A stretch of DNA of 64,000 nucleotides, taken from assembly GCF_002854065.1 (NCBI RefSeq), contig NZ_CP024147.1; one strand, written 5' to 3'. The stretch comes from Escherichia coli (GTDB lineage: Bacteria; Pseudomonadota; Gammaproteobacteria; Enterobacterales; Enterobacteriaceae). Under the pieces are notes generated by a model. That model was not told the DNA's origin. It did no database searches and saw only the letters and a program-made list of their open reading frames with translations. A program made the translations under genes and the position numbers. Shown here piece after piece: positions 1,690-60,211 of the stretch; the stretch's first letter is position 1; each line of letters begins with the position of its first letter.

Positions 1690-2889
<1,200 letters not shown>

Positions 2890-3180
2890 TGCCTTTACGT
2901 GGGCGGTGATTTTGTCTACAATCTTACCCCCACGTATGCTAACGAAAGTTAGCAGCTAAAAAGATTTGTTCGTTGGAGCCTGGCCTATCCAGGCCTCCGT
3001 CGAAGACCGCAGGAGTTTCGCAAGAAACTTAATCCCCTGCGTAGACGGTGACAGAACGGTAAGATTATTCTTTTATATTCTGGCTTGTTTCTGCTCACCG
3101 TAATTAAGACGCTCTCTCCGTTTGGAGGAGTGAAGTGAGTTCCAGAGATTTTCTCTGGCAAACATCCAGGAGCAAAGCTA
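2890..3180 (+). promoter_or_regulatory. rplJ-rplL leader region (L10 operon promoter and structured leader used for translational autoregulation)
   Basis: 290-bp non-coding interval between rplA and rplJ; the long structured leader upstream of rplJ is established for this operon; exact element boundaries not resolved by eye. Confidence 0.5.
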
Positions 3181-52206: not shown

Positions 52207-52896
52207 TTAAAAACGGTGACCCGCTTCCAGCGGAACCGCTTCTTCACCGGCCTTAAACACATAGGTGGTGTTCGGGCCACCCAGCGTTGCGTGACCTTTA
52301 CTCACTGTGATCCAGTTACCTTCCGGTAGACCAATAATCGTCAGTTCTGGCGCGACGACCAGCAGTTCGCGAATACGCTGTTCACGGGTTTCACCTTTAT
52401 GGCCTTCCGGCAGCGCGTTGGTGAAGTGCGGGTTGATTTGCAACGGGAACAGATTCAGCGCATCGAAACCTTGCGGATCGACAATCGGCATATCGTTGGT
52501 GGTACGAATGGTTGGGCAAGCAAGGTTAGCGCCTGCGCTCCAGCCAATATACAGTGCGCCACGTTTAACCACGTCAGTAATTGGTGCCAGCAGCCCGCGC
52601 TCGCGGCACTGTTTCAGCAACTGGAAAGTATTACCGCCGCCGACAATCACGATCTCAGCATTTTCAATCGCGGCAACGGGATCGACAACGCTATGAATAC
52701 CGGTGACAGAAACACCCAGCGGAGCGAGAACCGCAGCCGTTTTCTCTGTGTAATCATCCCAGGTCTGCGTTACGCCAGCGAAAGGGATAAACACCGCTGA
52801 GCGGCGACCCTGCAACTGTTCAGCAATTAGCGGCAGTGCATGTTCCAGCCAGGCTTTACCCGGCAGCGTCGAGTTACTCAATAAAAGCAGTTCCAT
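52207..52896 (-). CDS. pepE: dipeptidase E (alpha-aspartyl dipeptidase)
   Basis: 229-aa [31 protein letters not shown], recognised PepE. Confidence 0.93.
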
Positions 52897-53017
52897 TACT
52901 TCTCCGGTTAGTAAGAAATCACGGAAGGAATGCTACCACTGCGAATTTAACCACTTACTGACATGGCTCACGATGTCACGTATTGCACAGGCGCTGAGAC
53001 TGATGACAAACACAGCA

Positions 53018-53120
53018 TTGCCTGATGCGCTACGCTTACCTGGCCTACCAGATAACTGCAATATATTGAATTTTCAAAATTATGTAGGCCGAATAAGGCT
53101 TTATTCCGCATCCGGCATAA
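53018..53120. repeat. REP elements at pepE / sor operon junction
   Basis: gcctgatgcgctacgcttacctggcctac and gtaggccgaataaggctttattccgcatccggca. Confidence 0.8.
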
Positions 53121-53277
53121 ACAATGTGTACTTTGCCACCAATTTGAGCGCCCCTTAAGGCGCTGATGTTTTTTTATCCTTCTCGTGCACATTGGGCCGC
53201 TTCAGCAATCAGCCGCACATCAGGTCGCGAAGTTGCCGCGGCGACCAGCCAGCGACATGCAGAGTTAAGTAGCGCGA

Positions 53278-54507
53278 TTAATCATGGGAAATTGCCTCTG
53301 CATGAGTGAGCAGATATTGCTCCGCCTCACCGGACCAGATCCCCTGATGACGCGCCAGAATCGCCGCCAGTGCTTGATCCTGAATCTGCGTGAGTGACGT
53401 CAGCGGCAGGTATTTCCCGGTATACACCAGCTTTTTGCCGCCGCCGACGGCAGGCAATTCAAGCGTGGTTTCGCCCGCGGCATTCAGCCCAAGAATATGT
53501 GTTACCACTTTTGCGGCCTGCACTTTTTTCTCTTCGATCAGTTTGACCGCCGCGCGCATGTCGTCGGTATTGCCGCCTGACGTGCCCACGTAGTGGGTAA
53601 ATGCATAATGCACATCGTAGAAATTAATTGGCGCGCTGAAATGTTTATCCTGCGGTCCGGCGAAGAAATTCAGGCAACCATCTGTCGCCAGCAAGGAAGA
53701 GGCGAGAGTCACCAGTCCTTCATTAGGCACAAAGACGAAAATATCATCGAAGCCGTGACCGCCACTCAGCGCCATTAGCGTATCAAATGCTGCATCGGTG
53801 GCATTGAGATAATGAATCAGTGTTTGCGATTCTGATGGATAGTGCTTGCGCGCATAACTCAATTTATCGTTGTCGGTATCGGTAATGACGAGCAGCGACG
53901 GGTTAACGGGTCCATGCAGCGCATAATCAATCGCCAACAGTCCCATTGGTCCGGTGCCGCCGAGGATCAGCGTGCGCCCTTGCGGGCGAATCCCCATCGT
54001 GTGGTTATAACTACCTTCCTGAAGATGATAGTTGGCGTTGAACGCGCCAATCACGCAGGAAAGCGGTTCAACCAGCGAGCCTTCAAAATAGGTTTCGCCG
54101 TCGTATGCCAGCAGGCAATCTTGTTCCATGACCTCGTTGGGAATAACCACATGCGTGGCTTCGCCGCCTACCCACGGGAAGGAGTAGCCGGGGCAGTCCG
54201 GGCGGTCGGGGAGTTGCAGGTTGGCCTGAATCACATAACGCTGACCCGGCTGGAATTTGTGCTGCCACTTTTTACCCACGGCCAGAATATCGCCGCAAAA
54301 CTCGTGGCCGATGATGATTGGGTTGGTCGCCACATCGTCGGGTACTTTTTTATGGTTTTCACCCAGGTTGGCCTCTTTCCAGGAAGAGAGGCACAGGCTG
54401 TCAGTGACCACCGTCGCGAGGATTTCTTCCTCCTGCATTTCAGGAAGGTCAAAGGTTTCCAGGCGTAAATCACGTTTACCATAAAGACGCAGAGCTGTTG
54501 TTTTCAT
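53278..54507 (-). CDS. sorE: L-sorbose-1-phosphate reductase (zinc-dependent MDR dehydrogenase)
   Basis: 409-aa product from MKTTALRLYG; GHEFCGDI zinc-ADH motif and Rossmann GGTGPMG; last gene of seven-gene sor cluster. Confidence 0.8.
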   Translation of the reverse strand: MKTTALRLYGKRDLRLETFDLPEMQEEEILATVVTDSLCLSSWKEANLGENHKKVPDDVATNPIIIGHEFCGDILAVGKKWQHKFQPGQRYVIQANLQLPDRPDCPGYSFPWVGGEATHVVIPNEVMEQDCLLAYDGETYFEGSLVEPLSCVIGAFNANYHLQEGSYNHTMGIRPQGRTLILGGTGPMGLLAIDYALHGPVNPSLLVITDTDNDKLSYARKHYPSESQTLIHYLNATDAAFDTLMALSGGHGFDDIFVFVPNEGLVTLASSLLATDGCLNFFAGPQDKHFSAPINFYDVHYAFTHYVGTSGGNTDDMRAAVKLIEEKKVQAAKVVTHILGLNAAGETTLELPAVGGGKKLVYTGKYLPLTSLTQIQDQALAAILARHQGIWSGEAEQYLLTHAEAISHD

Positions 54508-54558
54508 AAACCACCTCATGTTGAGCGATGGCCCCGGCAGTCGTGCCGGGGCGAAGAA

Positions 54559-55383
54559 TCAGGACAGGAAGCCCAGCGCATTGCCGATAATTCCTAAGCC
54601 AAACAGGGCGAAAATCAGCCATACCGGGTTAATTTTTTTGTTGAGCAGACGAACCATTAGTAGCGTCAGACCGAGCGCCAGCAAACCAGGGCAAAGTTGG
54701 TCGAGAATGTTCTGCACGGTCATGGTGACGGTGGAGCCATCGGCGGCATGCGTTTGTGAAACCACCAACGGTACGTTGATTGACGTCCATTTGGTGACCA
54801 GCACGCCCATCACAAACAGTCCGAGAATCGACGCGCCTTCGGTGAGTTTTTGCAGCACATTCCCGCCCATATCGCTGACGATATTCACCCCTTTGCGAAA
54901 GCCGAGCTGTAGGCCATACCACTTCATCGCCAGACGCACCGCGTTGAAAATAAAGAAGAACAGCAGCGGGCCGAGAATGTTGCCCGAAAGTGCCAGAGAT
55001 GCGCCGAGCGCGGCGGTAATCGGGCGCAGCGTTCCCCAGACCAGTGGGTCGCCAACCCCTGCCAATGGTCCCATCAGACCGACTTTGATGCCGTTAATGG
55101 TACCGTCATCAATTTCCGCGCCGTTGGCCCGCGCCTCTTCCATGGCGGCAGTGACGCCGATGACCGGGCCACATACGGCTGGCGTGGTATTGAAGAACAC
55201 CAGGTGTCGCCTGAGCGCCGCAACCTGATCCTCTTTTAATGGGTAAAGTCGCTTGATGGCGGGGATCATGTCGTAGCAAAAACCCAGCCCGTGAATACGT
55301 TCAAAGTTAAAGGACGCCTGTTGCAGGTTGGAGCGCAGAAACATGCTCACCAGATCGCTGCGTGTAATTTTTCTCTGTTCCAT
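54559..55383 (-). CDS. sorM: PTS mannose/sorbose-family EIID component
   Basis: 274-aa product from MEQRKITRSDLVSMFLRSNLQQASFNFERI, resembling ManZ N-terminus; multi-TM. Confidence 0.8.
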   Translation of the reverse strand: MEQRKITRSDLVSMFLRSNLQQASFNFERIHGLGFCYDMIPAIKRLYPLKEDQVAALRRHLVFFNTTPAVCGPVIGVTAAMEEARANGAEIDDGTINGIKVGLMGPLAGVGDPLVWGTLRPITAALGASLALSGNILGPLLFFFIFNAVRLAMKWYGLQLGFRKGVNIVSDMGGNVLQKLTEGASILGLFVMGVLVTKWTSINVPLVVSQTHAADGSTVTMTVQNILDQLCPGLLALGLTLLMVRLLNKKINPVWLIFALFGLGIIGNALGFLS

Positions 55384-55393
55384 GATGGCTCCG

Positions 55394-56191
55394 TTAATCG
55401 TCAAGTTGGTCAAGGGCGGTGGAGGCGGTGGCCTGGAGTTGAGGTTCAGCTTTACGCCACTGTGGATTTAGCTGGATGTAGACCAGGGCCATGATCACGC
55501 CGACGCCACCGAACGCCAGCAGACTGAGATCGAGGTAGCCACCTGCGAGGAAACCGAGGAAAAAGAAAGGCATCAAATATTTCACGCCCATCATACGTAG
55601 CACCATGGCGTAACCGACCACCACGATAAAACCGCCAGCAATCTGTAGTCCTCGGGTCACAAATTCGGGAATGGCGTTTAACATATTGCTGACCATATCG
55701 GCGCTGACGAACAGCGAGACAATCAGTGCCGGAATAGCAACGCGCAGCGCCTGCACGCCAAGCGCGGAGACATGCAGAATATCGAAAGTGCGAAACCGCG
55801 CCTCTTCCGCTGCTTTATCCGCCGCGTGCTGGAACACTACGGTGATGGTACGGGCAAACACCGTCAGCACCTGGCCTGCCGCAGCCACAGGCAACGCGAT
55901 GGCGATTCCGGTGGCGATGCTTTGCTGACCAACGATAACCAGAATGGCGGAGATTATGCTGGCGAGTGCAGAGTCCGGAGATTGCGCCGCGCCGACGTTC
56001 ATCCAGCCGAGAGCTATCAATTCCAGCGTACCACCGAGTATTATTCCGGTTTTTAAATCACCGAGAATTAAACCAATCACCGTACAGGCAATTAACGGGC
56101 GATGAGTCTGAAATTCATCCAGCACGCTGCCCATTCCGGCAATACAGGAAAAAAGAAATATAGCAATAATTTGTAGGGTACTTATTTCCAT
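55394..56191 (-). CDS. sorA: PTS mannose/sorbose-family EIIC component
   Basis: 265-aa hydrophobic ORF MEISTLQIIAIFLFSCIAGMGSVLDEFQ, ManY-like. Confidence 0.8.
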   Translation of the reverse strand: MEISTLQIIAIFLFSCIAGMGSVLDEFQTHRPLIACTVIGLILGDLKTGIILGGTLELIALGWMNVGAAQSPDSALASIISAILVIVGQQSIATGIAIALPVAAAGQVLTVFARTITVVFQHAADKAAEEARFRTFDILHVSALGVQALRVAIPALIVSLFVSADMVSNMLNAIPEFVTRGLQIAGGFIVVVGYAMVLRMMGVKYLMPFFFLGFLAGGYLDLSLLAFGGVGVIMALVYIQLNPQWRKAEPQLQATASTALDQLDD

Positions 56192-56256
56192 GATTTGTCA
56201 CCTTTTAAGTGTCGTCATCCCTGCCTGTTAAAGCATATGTACACAGGCGCTATTAT

Positions 56257-56751
56257 TTAATTTGCGATTAACTGTTCGTTTATTTTGTCGATAATATTGA
56301 TTGAGGGATCTGACGCTACGACGCGTAAATCCAATATGACGCCAAGATTATTTAACTCATGAAATGCGTTAATATCATCATCATCTAATGAAACCGCTTT
56401 GGTTAACTGTTTTTTACCGGGCCGCCAGGCCATGCCGCCAATATTCAGGGTGCCTATTTTTACCCCCTGGCGAACCATCGCTAAGGCATCCTGTGGGCGA
56501 GTGAAAAGATAAAAAACGGTTTCGTCCTGATATTGCGGGTTGTGATAAACCGCGATGGCTTTTTCAATATTGACCACGTTAACCTTCATTCCCGGTGGCG
56601 CAGCCTGACGCAATAATGTCCGGCGAACTTCATCGTTATAAACTTCGTCATTGCAGATAATAATGCGCTGGGCGTTAGCCACTTTCGACCAGACGGTAGT
56701 GACCTGACCGTGGATCAGGCGGTCATCAATGCGGGCGAGCGTAATGTTCAT
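56257..56751 (-). CDS. sorB: PTS mannose/sorbose-family EIIB component
   Basis: 164-aa ORF with RIDDRLIHGQV phosphohistidine motif of EIIB-Man family. Confidence 0.8.
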   Translation of the reverse strand: MNITLARIDDRLIHGQVTTVWSKVANAQRIIICNDEVYNDEVRRTLLRQAAPPGMKVNVVNIEKAIAVYHNPQYQDETVFYLFTRPQDALAMVRQGVKIGTLNIGGMAWRPGKKQLTKAVSLDDDDINAFHELNNLGVILDLRVVASDPSINIIDKINEQLIAN

Positions 56752-57158
56752 CAGAAATCCTCCTCTGTCGTTGCCAGTTGTTTCCAGACAACGCAGGATT
56801 GCTTTGCGATTTGCGTCAGGTGTTCACACAGTTCATCAACATTCATGCTGTCCTGGTTATCAACCAGTTCGAGGGCCAGCGGCAGAGAAAGGCCGCTGAT
56901 TACCCGCAGACGAGGATTGCGCATCGCAAGCATCGCTGCCGCATTCCACGGGCTGCCGCACTGTAAATCCACGGTAATCAGCCACTCATCTTGATTGTGA
57001 ATGCTTACTAACTTTTCCAGCTTTGCTACGATGTCTCCGGCGTTCTCGCCGGGCACAAATTCAACGGCTTCAACATTGGTGTTGCCGTAAACCATCTGAA
57101 CCGATTCCAGCATGGCGCAAGCTAATTTGCCGTGGGCACAAAAAATGGCGTTGACCAT
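56751..57158 (-). CDS. sorF: PTS mannose/sorbose-family EIIA component
   Basis: 135-aa ORF MVNAIFCAHGKLACAML, EIIA-Man fold. Confidence 0.78.
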   Translation of the reverse strand: MVNAIFCAHGKLACAMLESVQMVYGNTNVEAVEFVPGENAGDIVAKLEKLVSIHNQDEWLITVDLQCGSPWNAAAMLAMRNPRLRVISGLSLPLALELVDNQDSMNVDELCEHLTQIAKQSCVVWKQLATTEEDF

Positions 57159-57167
57159 AAAGCCTCC

Positions 57168-57974
57168 TTATCCGCGCGTTTTGCCGCCCGCAATGTTAGT
57201 GGTTACTCCGGTGATGTAGCTGGCGCGTTCAGACAACAGATAACAAACAAAATCAGCGACTTCTGCTAATCTTCCGGCGCGCCCAATAGGAATGGCGTTT
57301 TTGGTATAGCCTTCACGCAGCTGCTCGACGGTGATATTGCGCGTCCACGCCAGCGCCTCTTCATATTCCGGCGTGCGTAGCCCGGTTTTTTCCAGAATCC
57401 CCGGCGCGATACCGACCACACGGATACCGTGTTTACCCAGCTCTTTCGACCAGGAGCGCGTGAAGCTATTGAGCGCGGCTTTGGTAGCGGCGTAACAGCT
57501 TTGTCCTTCTGAGCCTTCCAGTCCACTTTCTGAGGAAACATTCACAATCACGCCATCATGTTGTTTGACCATCTGTCGCGCCACCGCCTGCGACATCAGA
57601 AAAACGCCTTTCTGGTTGATATTGACCATTTTTTCGAATACAGCTTCGTTGAGTTCATACTTCCCGGCAGGCGCTTTCTCATCGACCAGCAGACGCGGGA
57701 AATTGACCCCGGCGTTATTGACCAGACCGTCGATGCGACCAAAACGCTGGATAATTTCCGCTACCGTATGATTTACCTCTTTGGCGCTGGAAATATCGGT
57801 CGGCCAAAACTGATAGCCTTTATGACCTTCATATTGTCCATCGCCACCGTGAATATCGACCATCTGTACATTCGCGCCTTGTGCTAATAATTCCTCTACA
57901 ATAGCCAGACCAATACCGGATGCGCCGCCGGTGACGATAATGATTTTATCCTGCAAATTTAACCACGTTTGCAT
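57168..57974 (-). CDS. sorD: SDR-family sorbitol(glucitol)-6-phosphate dehydrogenase
   Basis: 268-aa ORF with TGGASGIG cofactor motif and catalytic YxxxK (YAATKAAL). Confidence 0.8.
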   Translation of the reverse strand: MQTWLNLQDKIIIVTGGASGIGLAIVEELLAQGANVQMVDIHGGDGQYEGHKGYQFWPTDISSAKEVNHTVAEIIQRFGRIDGLVNNAGVNFPRLLVDEKAPAGKYELNEAVFEKMVNINQKGVFLMSQAVARQMVKQHDGVIVNVSSESGLEGSEGQSCYAATKAALNSFTRSWSKELGKHGIRVVGIAPGILEKTGLRTPEYEEALAWTRNITVEQLREGYTKNAIPIGRAGRLAEVADFVCYLLSERASYITGVTTNIAGGKTRG

Positions 57975-58043
57975 AACAGACTCCTGATTTTAGATAATAG
58001 GGACCCGCCGTAATTTTTATTACGATAATCATCGGGAAGATTT

Positions 58044-58991
58044 TTATTTCAGTAATAGTTCAGCTGTGCTGCTATTCGTTACCAGACAATTAATATATTT
58101 TCCACGCAGTGCACCAATAATTCCGCTGTATTTTTCTTCACTCATGGCAATGCCAATTGAATATCGTGCCTGCTTTAATTTATTCATTTCGATAGAGAGT
58201 GTTTTTTCGCTCATATTCGTTTCAACCATTGCGCCGTGAATATCAAAAAAGCGCGAGCAAATATCGCCAGCAACCTGGCGGGCATTCAGGTCGTCACTCT
58301 CTTCACCACCATAAAACGCATGCCAGTTAGCGCCGTCGCGAATGGCCGGTGAGCCAATTCCCACCAGGGCGACATCCAGATTATCCCAGTAGGCAGAGAT
58401 GGTTTTAAAGTGCTGAGACTGCATGATCCCATTACGAATTAAGGGGTTATCCAGCAGAGCCGGAAAATCCGCGAGATGCGATTCCCCTTTCAGCTTCGCA
58501 GCCGCGCTGTAGGTTAATGTGTTTACGTGATAGCGGCTTTCGAGTTTACCGGACGGTCCGCCAATAATTGGTACGCAGATTAACTGCCGCGATTGCCCCG
58601 CCTGCGGCAAGTTTTCAACCAGTGCGCTCACCGCGCGACCCCAGGAAAAACCGACAATATCGCCAGGCTCCAGCAAGCGATCCAGCAGTTGCGCGCCGTG
58701 TAACCCCATCATCGCCAGTTGAGTCTCTTCATCCTCATCATTTCCCGACACCACCACAACGTCTTTCAGGCCAAACTTTTGCTTCAGTTGCTGCTCCAGC
58801 CAGAGATTTTCGTTGTAGTCATAGTTGATGGCGATGGTGACAATTCCCTGATCGCGGCCTCGTTTAAGCAAGCGGCTGATGGTGGTGCGGTAAATACCCA
58901 GTTCGCGCGCGATTTGCGCCTGCGTCATATCCTGTTCGTAATAGAGTTGGGCAATCTTCACAATCAAACGGATATCGTCACTGTTTTCCAT
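58044..58991 (-). CDS. sorC: SorC-family transcriptional regulator of the sorbose operon
   Basis: 315-aa product from MENSDDIRLIVKIAQLYYEQDMTQAQIARELGIYRTTISRLL (N-terminal HTH) plus sugar-phosphate-binding domain; track ORF N-terminally extended. Confidence 0.8.
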   Translation of the reverse strand: MENSDDIRLIVKIAQLYYEQDMTQAQIARELGIYRTTISRLLKRGRDQGIVTIAINYDYNENLWLEQQLKQKFGLKDVVVVSGNDEDEETQLAMMGLHGAQLLDRLLEPGDIVGFSWGRAVSALVENLPQAGQSRQLICVPIIGGPSGKLESRYHVNTLTYSAAAKLKGESHLADFPALLDNPLIRNGIMQSQHFKTISAYWDNLDVALVGIGSPAIRDGANWHAFYGGEESDDLNARQVAGDICSRFFDIHGAMVETNMSEKTLSIEMNKLKQARYSIGIAMSEEKYSGIIGALRGKYINCLVTNSSTAELLLK

Positions 58992-59338
58992 TGCCGCCTC
59001 CTGGTTCTGCACATTTGTGCAAATACGCTTTCTCACCGCTTGATCTGATATAACCCCATCATGATGGCCTTTCAAAGCGATTTTTCACTCTTTGCATGGG
59101 GAGAAATAGCGCTTTCTCTTGCACATTTGTTTCTCTGCGCAGTAGTCATCAGCACAGGTGTGCAGCGATTCGTAATATGTTGATTATCCTTATTTTGACA
59201 GGCAAATTTGCATTGTACTTCCGGAGACACTTTTGTGATAAAAGGCGTGGCAGATCACATTTAATTTCGACGTTGCCGCATAACCCTGTTTTTCCCCGCT
59301 AAGAGGTACGGTATATTCCGCGTTTTACAGGAGAATTT

Positions 59339-60211
59339 ATGCTGCCCGACTCATCAGTCCGTTTAAATAAATACATCAGCGAAAGCGGAATTTGCTCACG
59401 CCGCGAAGCGGATCGCTATATCGAGCAAGGCAATGTGTTCCTTAATGGCAAGCGAGCCACCATTGGCGATCAGGTGAAACCCGGCGACGTTGTGAAAGTA
59501 AACGGTCAGTTGATTGAACCTCGGGAAGCCGAAGATTTGGTACTTATCGCCCTGAACAAGCCCGTCGGTATTGTCAGCACCACCGAAGATGGCGAGCGCG
59601 ATAACATTGTCGATTTTGTTAACCACAGCAAACGCGTGTTCCCGATTGGCCGCCTGGATAAAGACTCCCAGGGGCTGATTTTCCTCACCAATCACGGCGA
59701 TCTGGTGAATAAGATCCTCCGTGCGGGTAACGATCATGAGAAAGAGTATCTGGTGACGGTCGATAAACCGATTACCGATGAATTTATTCGTGGTATGGGG
59801 GCGGGGGTGCCGATCCTCGGGACGGTGACTAAAAAGTGCAAAGTCAAAAAAGAAGCGCCGTTTGTCTTCCGCATTACCCTGGTGCAGGGGCTGAACCGTC
59901 AGATCCGGCGCATGTGCGAGCATTTCGGCTATGAAGTGAAAAAGCTGGAACGTACGCGCATTATGAACGTCAGCTTAAGCGGCATTCCGCTGGGAGAATG
60001 GCGCGATTTAACCGACGACGAGCTTATCGATCTCTTTAAGCTCATTGAAAATTCCTCTTCCGAGGCGAAGCCCAAAGCGAAGGCCAAACCGAAAACAGCG
60101 GGCATCAAACGTCCAGTCGTTAAGATGGAAAAAACGGCGGAAAAAGGCGGTCGCCCGGCGTCCAACGGTAAGCGTTTTACCTCGCCGGGGCGTAAAAAGA
60201 AGGGGCGCTAA
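59339..60211 (+). CDS. rluF: 23S rRNA pseudouridine synthase RluF
   Basis: 290-aa ORF with S4 domain and RsuA-family catalytic motif ([13 protein letters not shown]), lysine-rich C-terminal tail. Confidence 0.92.

Follow-up and report, generated by a model that had tools for sequence, protein, structure and literature searches.

The sorCDFBAME operon lies on the minus strand of a 64,000-nucleotide stretch of Escherichia coli DNA (RefSeq assembly GCF_002854065.1, contig NZ_CP024147.1; "the window"), with the rluF gene divergent from it on the plus strand. The first gene of the operon, sorC (58044-58991, minus strand), encodes a 315-amino-acid regulator of the SorC/DeoR subfamily, labeled a sugar-binding transcriptional regulator in RefSeq. 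The 347-bp spacer between sorC and rluF carries no RefSeq annotation. It contains three conserved sites, O1, O2 and O3, to which SorC presumably binds. A preliminary description of the window had proposed SorC operator sites around the sor promoter, and this reading is now strongly, though indirectly, supported: phylogenetic footprints are seen in 31 taxa, the sites match the operator of the homologous regulator DeoR, and the predicted promoter falls between them. It is also probable, at a lower level of confidence, that the three operators combine a repression loop with upstream activation around a weak, activator-dependent sigma-70 promoter. The loop itself and the switch between the two states are offered as a hypothesis.

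Operator-like sites in the sorC-rluF spacer

The sorC-proximal site, O1, is a full 16-bp SorC-type palindrome at 59007-59022 (TTGCACAAATGTGCAG on the sorC strand; center 59014.5, at about +26.5 relative to the predicted start). Its core is the perfect inverted repeat TGCACAttTGTGCA (TGCACA-tt-TGTGCA) at 59008-59021, the near end of which lies 17 nt upstream of the A in the sorC start codon (58991), both as first described. The overlap with the ribosome-binding region that had been claimed for it is not seen. The palindrome stops 6 nt short of the Shine-Dalgarno sequence GGAGG (58997-59001), and its distance to the ATG ranges from 24 to 85 nt across taxa.

The second site, O2 (59119-59134; center 59126.5, about -86.5; nnnnnCAAATGTGCAA on the sorC strand), includes an exact second copy of TGCACATTTGT at 59120-59130 or, read as TTGCACATTTGT, at 59119-59130. 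It is a half-site: one half (59119-59129) is conserved and the other is degenerate. This partial copy had been placed about 110 bp from the first, at a spacing of about 11 helical turns; the centers are in fact 112 bp apart, which computes to 10.7 turns at 10.5 bp per turn. Both copies recognized earlier are conserved sites, although the count of two was too low, and there are at least three. The one that had been missed, O3 (59150-59165; center 59157.5, about -117.5), is a more complete copy, tcaGCACAggTGTGCa, with the inner palindrome GCAC-N4-GTGC; its core, GCACAggTGTGC, at 59152-59163 was picked up by the repeat finder (families D2 and I2). The centers of O1 and O3 are 143 bp apart and those of O2 and O3 31 bp apart.

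Judged from the window alone, the palindrome family is suggestive and weakly significant. In 64 kb, TGCACATTTGT with at most one mismatch is found twice against 1.6 expected, GCAC-N4-GTGC three times against 1.6, and TTGCAC-N4-GTGCAA with at most two mismatches four times against 4.1. The three matches outside the spacer are at chance level and were not accepted as further SorC sites in the window. Simulating the 347-bp spacer with a Markov model produced an exact direct repeat of 11 nt or more in 3.7% of runs and one of 9 nt or more in 32%. The significance of the operator-like sites therefore comes from their conservation across loci, not from counts in the window.

Conservation of the sites and of their spacing

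A one-genome-per-species scan yielded 27 Enterobacterales loci with a SorC 70-100% identical to that of the window, the listing of the protein search being confined to relatives of at least 70% identity. Three loci, from Sodalis, Kosakonia and a metagenome contig (SorC 80% identical), were added by exact protein look-up. The comparison set comprises 31 sor loci, from Escherichia to Sodalis; spacings were compared in 29 taxa (the window, L001-L021, L024, L025, L029, L030 and L045-L047). The upstream regions were anchored on the sorC-proximal palindrome and laid out without gaps. Islands of identity stand out against a low background, the window and the non-Escherichia taxa sharing only about 47% identity across the region.

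O1 and the second copy are kept across the 31 loci, the outcome that had been called for in other sor operons. O1 reads TTGCACAAATGTGCA in 25 of the 31 taxa and carries a single change in the other six. O2 retains CAAATGTGCAA while its opposite half varies freely, and O3 retains GCAC and GTGC around four variable central bases. Within the 280-bp regulatory regions of the 31 loci there are 60 occurrences of GCAC-N4-GTGC, against one in 200 kb of flanking DNA, a rate ratio of about 1400. Spacing is as constant as sequence. O2 and O3 are 31 bp apart in 29/29 taxa; O1 and O2 are 112 bp apart in 27/29, with 111 and 113 bp in the remaining two; and O1 and O3 are 143 bp apart in 27/29. Over 260 bp (59007-59262) the region is nearly free of insertions and deletions in the 29 taxa despite about 50% sequence turnover, which would indicate a stereospecific multi-protein complex.

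A simpler form is found in Kluyvera (L022 and L023, about positions 2790-3000). The region is shorter there, with O1 and one full palindrome, TTGCACAAACGTGCAA, 101 bp upstream, bracketing the same promoter. The upstream palindrome is 11 bp closer than O2. Blocks resembling binding sites for CRP and IHF and a fourth palindrome (O4), all described below, are absent from Kluyvera, and rluF is much closer. The spacings of 101, 112 and 143 bp differ by 11, 31 and 42 bp, that is by whole helical turns. Architectures intermediate between that of Kluyvera and those of the Firmicutes (below) were not obtained among the listed relatives of at least 70% identity.

The motif cgctttctc, which had been reported to accompany both sites, lies outside the conserved system. 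Both copies are real, on the plus strand, at 59026-59034 and 59110-59118 rather than at 59024-59033 and 59109-59118. Only the window and one Pseudocitrobacter genome (L025) have both, and copy 2 is limited to the Escherichia/Pseudocitrobacter clade. The sequence beside O1 is GGCAATTTCGTGAT in Citrobacter and CAGCAAATATGTGAT in Klebsiella, where cgctttctc is absent, as it is in Raoultella and others. As an operator co-motif it was rejected, being unconserved and, as a 9-mer repeat, at the 32% chance level of the simulations.

SorC as the likely binding protein

The SorC of the window is about 90% identical to Klebsiella pneumoniae SorC (PDB 2W48), and a single residue distinguishes the two within the first 64 positions. 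A close parallel for its sites is provided by Bacillus subtilis DeoR, the physiological operator of which is ATTGAACAAAATTTCAATTACCAATTTACATATGTTCAA according to a 2024 structural study (PMC11229326). One DeoR dimer binds the palindrome TTGAACAAAATTTCAA (OL), and a second dimer binds a degenerate site, OR, that keeps the 3' repeat only (PMC11229326). O1 (TTGCACAAATGTGCAA) matches OL at 12 of 16 positions, and O2 (ACAAATGTGCAA) matches the OR half-site ACATATGTTCAA at 10 of 12. O1 also has the 16-bp palindrome form TTGnA-N6-TnCAA of SorC/DeoR-subfamily operators. SorC and DeoR share 48% identity in their DNA-binding domains, and the side chains that contact DNA show high conservation within the subfamily (PMC11229326). 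The base-contacting residues R34 and R39 of DeoR align with R35 and R40 of SorC, and the recognition helix YRTTISRLLKR is conserved; sorC thus encodes, beside the operator, a regulator with a homeodomain-like helix-turn-helix and conserved contact residues.

The motif can be followed beyond the enterobacteria. Three Firmicute regulators (L026, L027 and L028) that are 43-48% identical to SorC have an identical recognition helix, LGIYRTTISR. Upstream of each regulator gene lies TTGCACAATTGT(G/A)C, followed 19-20 bp on by a second site or half-site ending in GTGCAA or GTGCTA (L026, about 2790-2830; L027, about 2945-2985; L028, about 2795-2835). In L026 and L028 the tandem sites bracket a TATAAT-like box, a contiguous operator in the style of DeoR. 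The neighboring genes encode a GFO/IDH/MocA oxidoreductase and RpiA-like proteins, not sorbose functions; the motif therefore appears to follow the protein and not the pathway. The Firmicute loci are evidence that motif and protein go together; they are not evidence that the promoters are orthologous. The arrangement of two half-operators about 20-23 bp apart, making one operator of 39-45 bp, is present in these Firmicute homologues (19-20 bp) and not at sor, and no partner site is found about 20 bp from O1 in the aligned sor regions.

Published information on SorC itself comes from a 2010 paper (PMC2943609). There SorC is said to crystallize as a tetramer whose DNA-binding domains form two separate pairs and to act on sor both as a repressor and as an activator (with citation of Wöhrl 1990 and de Sanctis 2009), and DeoR is named the only SorC-family member besides CggR with an identified DNA site. 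No paper defining the SorC operator was found in the literature searched, which did not extend to Wöhrl et al. 1990, and a literature search for the motif string returned unrelated papers only. Taken together, the comparisons make SorC the likely binder of O1-O3.

The predicted sor promoter

A sigma-70 promoter is predicted on the minus strand at 59040-59093. It consists of a UP-like A-rich tract (59078-59093), the -35 hexamer TTGAAA (59070-59075), a 17-nt spacer and the -10 hexamer TATATC (59047-59052), with +1 near 59040. The -10 hexamer is contained in an invariant block, GGGGTTATATCAGATCA, at 59041-59057. The prediction comes from a position-weight scan of sigma-70 hexamers at every aligned position of 26 taxa, with assumed hexamer frequencies. 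On the sorC strand, TTGAAA-17-TATATC came out as the best conserved sigma-70-like site, averaging 6.4 bits with a minimum of 3.75; the runner-up among unrelated candidates reached 3.1. The -10 hexamer lacks the final (-7) T, and a simple consensus scan missed the promoter because it demands T at position 6 of the -10 element. This defect suits an activator-dependent promoter. An alternative -10 proposed by the simple scan, TACAAT at 59212-59217, is not conserved and was set aside. Comparison by eye with the sigma-54, LacI-type, Cra and FNR consensus sequences gave no fit.

The predicted promoter lies between O2 and O1. O1 spans about +19 to +34, and O2 and O3 are both upstream of the -35 hexamer. 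The distance from the -10 hexamer to O1 is constant in 29/29 taxa and that from O1 to the sorC ATG is not (24-85 nt); O1 would therefore be a promoter-linked DNA element that is not tied to translation. Operators centered at +26.5, -86.5 and -117.5 bracket the predicted promoter at separations within the range of looping systems (about 90-400 bp).

Two GATC (Dam) sites are conserved in nearly all taxa, one at the predicted start (59042-59045) and one inside the CRP-like site (59253-59256), and methylation-sensitive binding at these two sites is conceivable.

A proposed repression loop with upstream activation, and the alternatives

In the mechanism that we favor as probable, one dimer of N-terminal helix-turn-helix domains would sit on each 16-bp TTGCAC-N4-GTGCAA site, as it does in B. 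subtilis DeoR. Without L-sorbose, a SorC tetramer would join O1 to O2/O3, closing a loop of 112-143 bp around the promoter and repressing the operon together with sorC. With inducer, O1 would be released, and SorC on O2-O3, on one helical face upstream of the -35 hexamer, would activate RNA polymerase. The IHF-like site (-139), the CRP-like site (-211) and the weak fourth palindrome (-192) probably assist. Three observations are in favor of a loop: O1 has no partner 20 bp away, Kluyvera has a two-palindrome form, and the spacings differ by whole turns.

A number of points weigh against this mechanism. With 10.5 bp to a turn, distances of 112 and 143 bp correspond to 10.7 and 13.6 turns, and O1 may thus lie on another helical face than O2/O3. 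The O2-O3 spacing of 31 bp exceeds by one turn the distance usual between dimers in the family; it is about 20-23 bp for DeoR and its Firmicute counterparts, and a spacing of about two turns is suggested by the crystallized SorC tetramer (PMC2943609). One tetramer may therefore not span O2-O3 unless the DNA is bent. O2 is a half-site only. At -211, the CRP-like site is unusually distant from the promoter. The promoter is a prediction that depends on assumed hexamer frequencies, and the start and the binding of SorC to the sites are likewise predicted from sequence.

A serious rival dispenses with the loop. SorC operators would then act independently, O1 as a roadblock in the leader and site of autorepression and O2-O3 as a separate activator site, with occupancy shifting as inducer is bound. 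All the evidence for the sites serves this arrangement equally well, and it agrees with the non-integral number of turns between O1 and O2/O3 at 10.5 bp per turn. It also agrees with the tolerance of the O1-O2 spacing for a 1-bp change, the O2-O3 spacing being invariant, and it has a precedent in B. subtilis CggR, which represses from +32 to +77 with no distant partner (PMC11229326). Independent action does not account so readily for an O1-O2 distance kept at 112 bp in 27 of 29 taxa through heavy sequence turnover, nor for a Kluyvera upstream site shifted by exactly 11 bp. The two DNA-binding dimers of the SorC tetramer (PMC2943609) likewise argue against it at a locus where O1 has no 20-bp partner. 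On balance, independent operators are considered unlikely.

It is improbable that the palindromes are bound by a protein other than SorC, such as a global regulator or another sugar regulator. The link between SorC and the sites comes from sequence comparison, CACA and TGTG are also found in CRP-type sites, and a CRP-like site does lie in the same region. The motif nevertheless tracks SorC-type regulators across phyla, including loci unrelated to sorbose, and bears a close resemblance to the operator of DeoR, a homologue that shares the contact arginines. It has neither the central CG of LacI-type operators nor the N6 spacing of CRP sites.

Slightly less probable still is a function of O1 as an RNA hairpin acting on translation or mRNA stability from the sorC leader. 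O1 would be transcribed if the predicted start is right, its two arms could pair into a 7-bp stem closing a 4-nt loop immediately before the Shine-Dalgarno sequence, and GGAG abuts it in many taxa. On the other hand, the fold of the leader is unexceptional (z = -0.9; 35 of 200 shuffled sequences fold at least as well), no Rfam family is found in 58900-59450 at E ≤1, and the stem is invariant, with no covariation. A leader hairpin would also sit oddly with a variable distance to the start codon (24-85 nt) and a fixed one to the -10 hexamer, and with a motif that recurs ahead of the promoter, as O2 and O3, and flanks the -10 elements of the Firmicute homologues.

Chance similarity in an AT-rich spacer, to which the nonsignificant counts in the window and the frequency of random 9-mer repeats might have pointed, is refuted for O1-O3 by sequence and spacing kept in 31 taxa at about 1400-fold enrichment, and stands only for cgctttctc.

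Conserved blocks upstream of O3

Four further blocks are conserved at fixed spacing upstream of O3. They are assigned to sor because they are kept where rluF is not the neighbor. The first is an IHF-like core on the minus strand at 59173-59185 (AATCAACATATTA, pattern WATCARNNNNTTR; center 59179, about -139), with an A-rich tract on its 5' side. It has the sequence features of an IHF site, the core WATCARNNNNTTR and a 5' A/T-rich tract. The pattern occurs at the aligned place in 28 of 29 taxa, its four N positions being free to vary, and has 10 occurrences in 390 kb of flanks. The core is 21.5 bp from O3 in 29/29 taxa.

The second block, TGCAAnTTTG (59203-59212, minus strand), contains the palindrome GCAAATTTGC at 59202-59211 and may be a weak SorC-like site with a spacer shorter by 2 bp. 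Together with the IHF-like block it can alternatively be read as a plus-strand promoter, TTGATT (59180-59185)-18-AAATTT (59204-59209). The third, the O4-like palindrome (A/T)CAC-AAAA-GTGT at 59227-59238 (center 59232.5, about -192.5), is conserved in 29 taxa; it keeps the CAC-N4-GTG core of the SorC motif and differs from that motif by symmetric G-to-A and C-to-T changes. A SorC matrix built from O1 and O3 ranks the O4 block fourth (mean -2.7 bits) and the TGCAA block fifth (mean below zero). With mean matrix scores below zero, neither block was assigned as a SorC site.

The fourth block is a CRP-like site on the minus strand at 59241-59262 (AAATGTGATCTGCCACGCCTTT; center 59251.5, about -211.5). 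It has 7-9 of 10 core positions in 28 of 29 taxa (7 in the window) and 6 in L030, with TGTGATC, C16, C18 and TTT conserved; matches of at least 7 of 10 have a background frequency of 0.3%. Its center, at about -211.5 from the predicted sor start, is outside the canonical activating range of -41.5 to about -103.5. In the aligned taxa, no conserved -10 element is found at class I or class II distance downstream of it.

A more ambitious reading takes the whole 260 bp (59007-59262) as a single stereospecific nucleoprotein switch, in which one SorC tetramer would toggle between two states. In the first, O1 would be looped to O2/O3 for repression; in the second, an activation complex would form on O2-O3, with O4 and CRP brought in by an IHF bend. 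Such a switch would resemble the "light switch" of AraC and would have evolved independently in the SorC/DeoR family, from a Firmicute-type tandem operator via the two-site form of Kluyvera. This extension is speculative, and we regard it as possible but doubtful.

The sor unit and its neighbors

On the minus strand, sorC is followed by genes for a short-chain dehydrogenase/reductase and for the IIA, IIB and IIC components of a mannose/sorbose-family phosphotransferase system, with more genes down to pepE; rluF occupies 59339-60211 on the plus strand. Of 5426 complete E. coli genomes, 2865 match a 551-bp query around the spacer over its full length. The remaining genomes match it only from about 59304 onward, and the 312 bp at 58992-59303 are therefore part of the sor unit. 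The operon and its regulatory region (52207-59303) lie between pepE and rluF and are missing from about 47% of complete E. coli genomes, with a right junction at 59303/59304. In the one sor-less genome examined, pepE directly adjoins rluF.

Given this junction, a likely rluF -10 hexamer (TATATT, 59312-59317) would be common to strains with and without sor. The DNA at the expected rluF -35 position differs between the two kinds of strain. In strains with sor, the CRP-like site would be about 72 bp upstream of the putative rluF start. Citrobacter youngae (L004, 2525-2655) has about 130 nt extra between the rluF start codon and a conserved element, GGTATATTTCGC, which abuts rluF in other taxa; several Citrobacter and Klebsiella loci carry the same insert of about 130 nt. 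A 68-amino-acid open reading frame starting with ATG (59096-59302, plus strand) covers the greater part of the spacer. No orthologue preserves it, each having either in-frame stops or no intact frame, and it was rejected as a gene.

Comparison with known systems

DeoR resembles the sor system in the 16-bp palindrome TTGnA-N6-TnCAA for a helix-turn-helix dimer, in the tetrameric regulator and in the conserved base-contacting arginines. In both, a full palindrome is accompanied by a second site of which only the 3' half is kept (OL and OR in DeoR; O3 and O2 at sor). DeoR, a pure repressor, differs in having contiguous halves (39 bp; center-to-center distance about 22 bp) that overlap promoter positions -60 to -21. 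At sor the two sites of the pair are separated by 31 bp and both lie entirely upstream of the -35 hexamer, and the third and best site is downstream of the start. The half-site core is GCAC at sor and GAAC in DeoR, and SorC is reported to activate as well. An O1 with no partner 20 bp away is unlike the other characterized operators of the SorC family.

In the gal repressosome, GalR at OE and OI acts with HU, the operators bracket the promoter with centers about 113 bp apart, and repression is by looping. The sor promoter is likewise bracketed, at 112 bp compared with about 113 bp. The systems differ in that SorC would act as a preformed tetramer of its own family, whereas GalR is a LacI-family protein that needs HU; sor has a third site, its IHF-like site is outside the putative O1-O2 loop, and looping there is hypothetical. 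At araBAD, the AraC "light switch" shifts from an O2-I1 loop to I1-I2, with a CRP site upstream. Loop repression combined with activation from adjacent upstream half-sites, and the upstream CRP site, recall the dual role reported for SorC. AraC belongs to an unrelated family and its distal site is upstream, not in the leader, and the SorC switch is hypothetical. Promoters of the narG type have a distal activator near -200 and IHF near -125. The IHF-like site of sor, at about -139 between promoter-proximal and distal (-192, -211) conserved sites, is similarly placed, although at sor the IHF-like and distal sites are candidates read from sequence.

A second E. coli tetramer of the SorC family, LsrR, binds two boxes in the divergent lsrR-lsrA region, which is CRP-responsive, and controls its own gene. 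LsrR is a repressor only, and its boxes, AACAAT and AAGATTTAA, are unlike TTGCAC-N4-GTGCAA.

Structural models of the SorC/DeoR family are based on DeoR and CggR, both of them pure repressors whose operators are contiguous. The type of regulation proposed here is itself ordinary. The sor sites would be operators of a SorC/DeoR-subfamily regulator that are unreported in the literature searched, with a split in place of a contiguous architecture. SorC is the namesake of a large family of sugar-responsive regulators. The three-site map places a full site in the leader and, upstream of a weak promoter, a pair at a rigid spacing of 31 bp, together with candidate IHF and CRP sites; it makes the question of how SorC can be both repressor and activator a testable one. 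If the map is true, a tandem operator has been redeployed into a split architecture, and the motif TTGCAC-N4-GTGCAA may be used in annotation for predicting the targets of SorC-like regulators.

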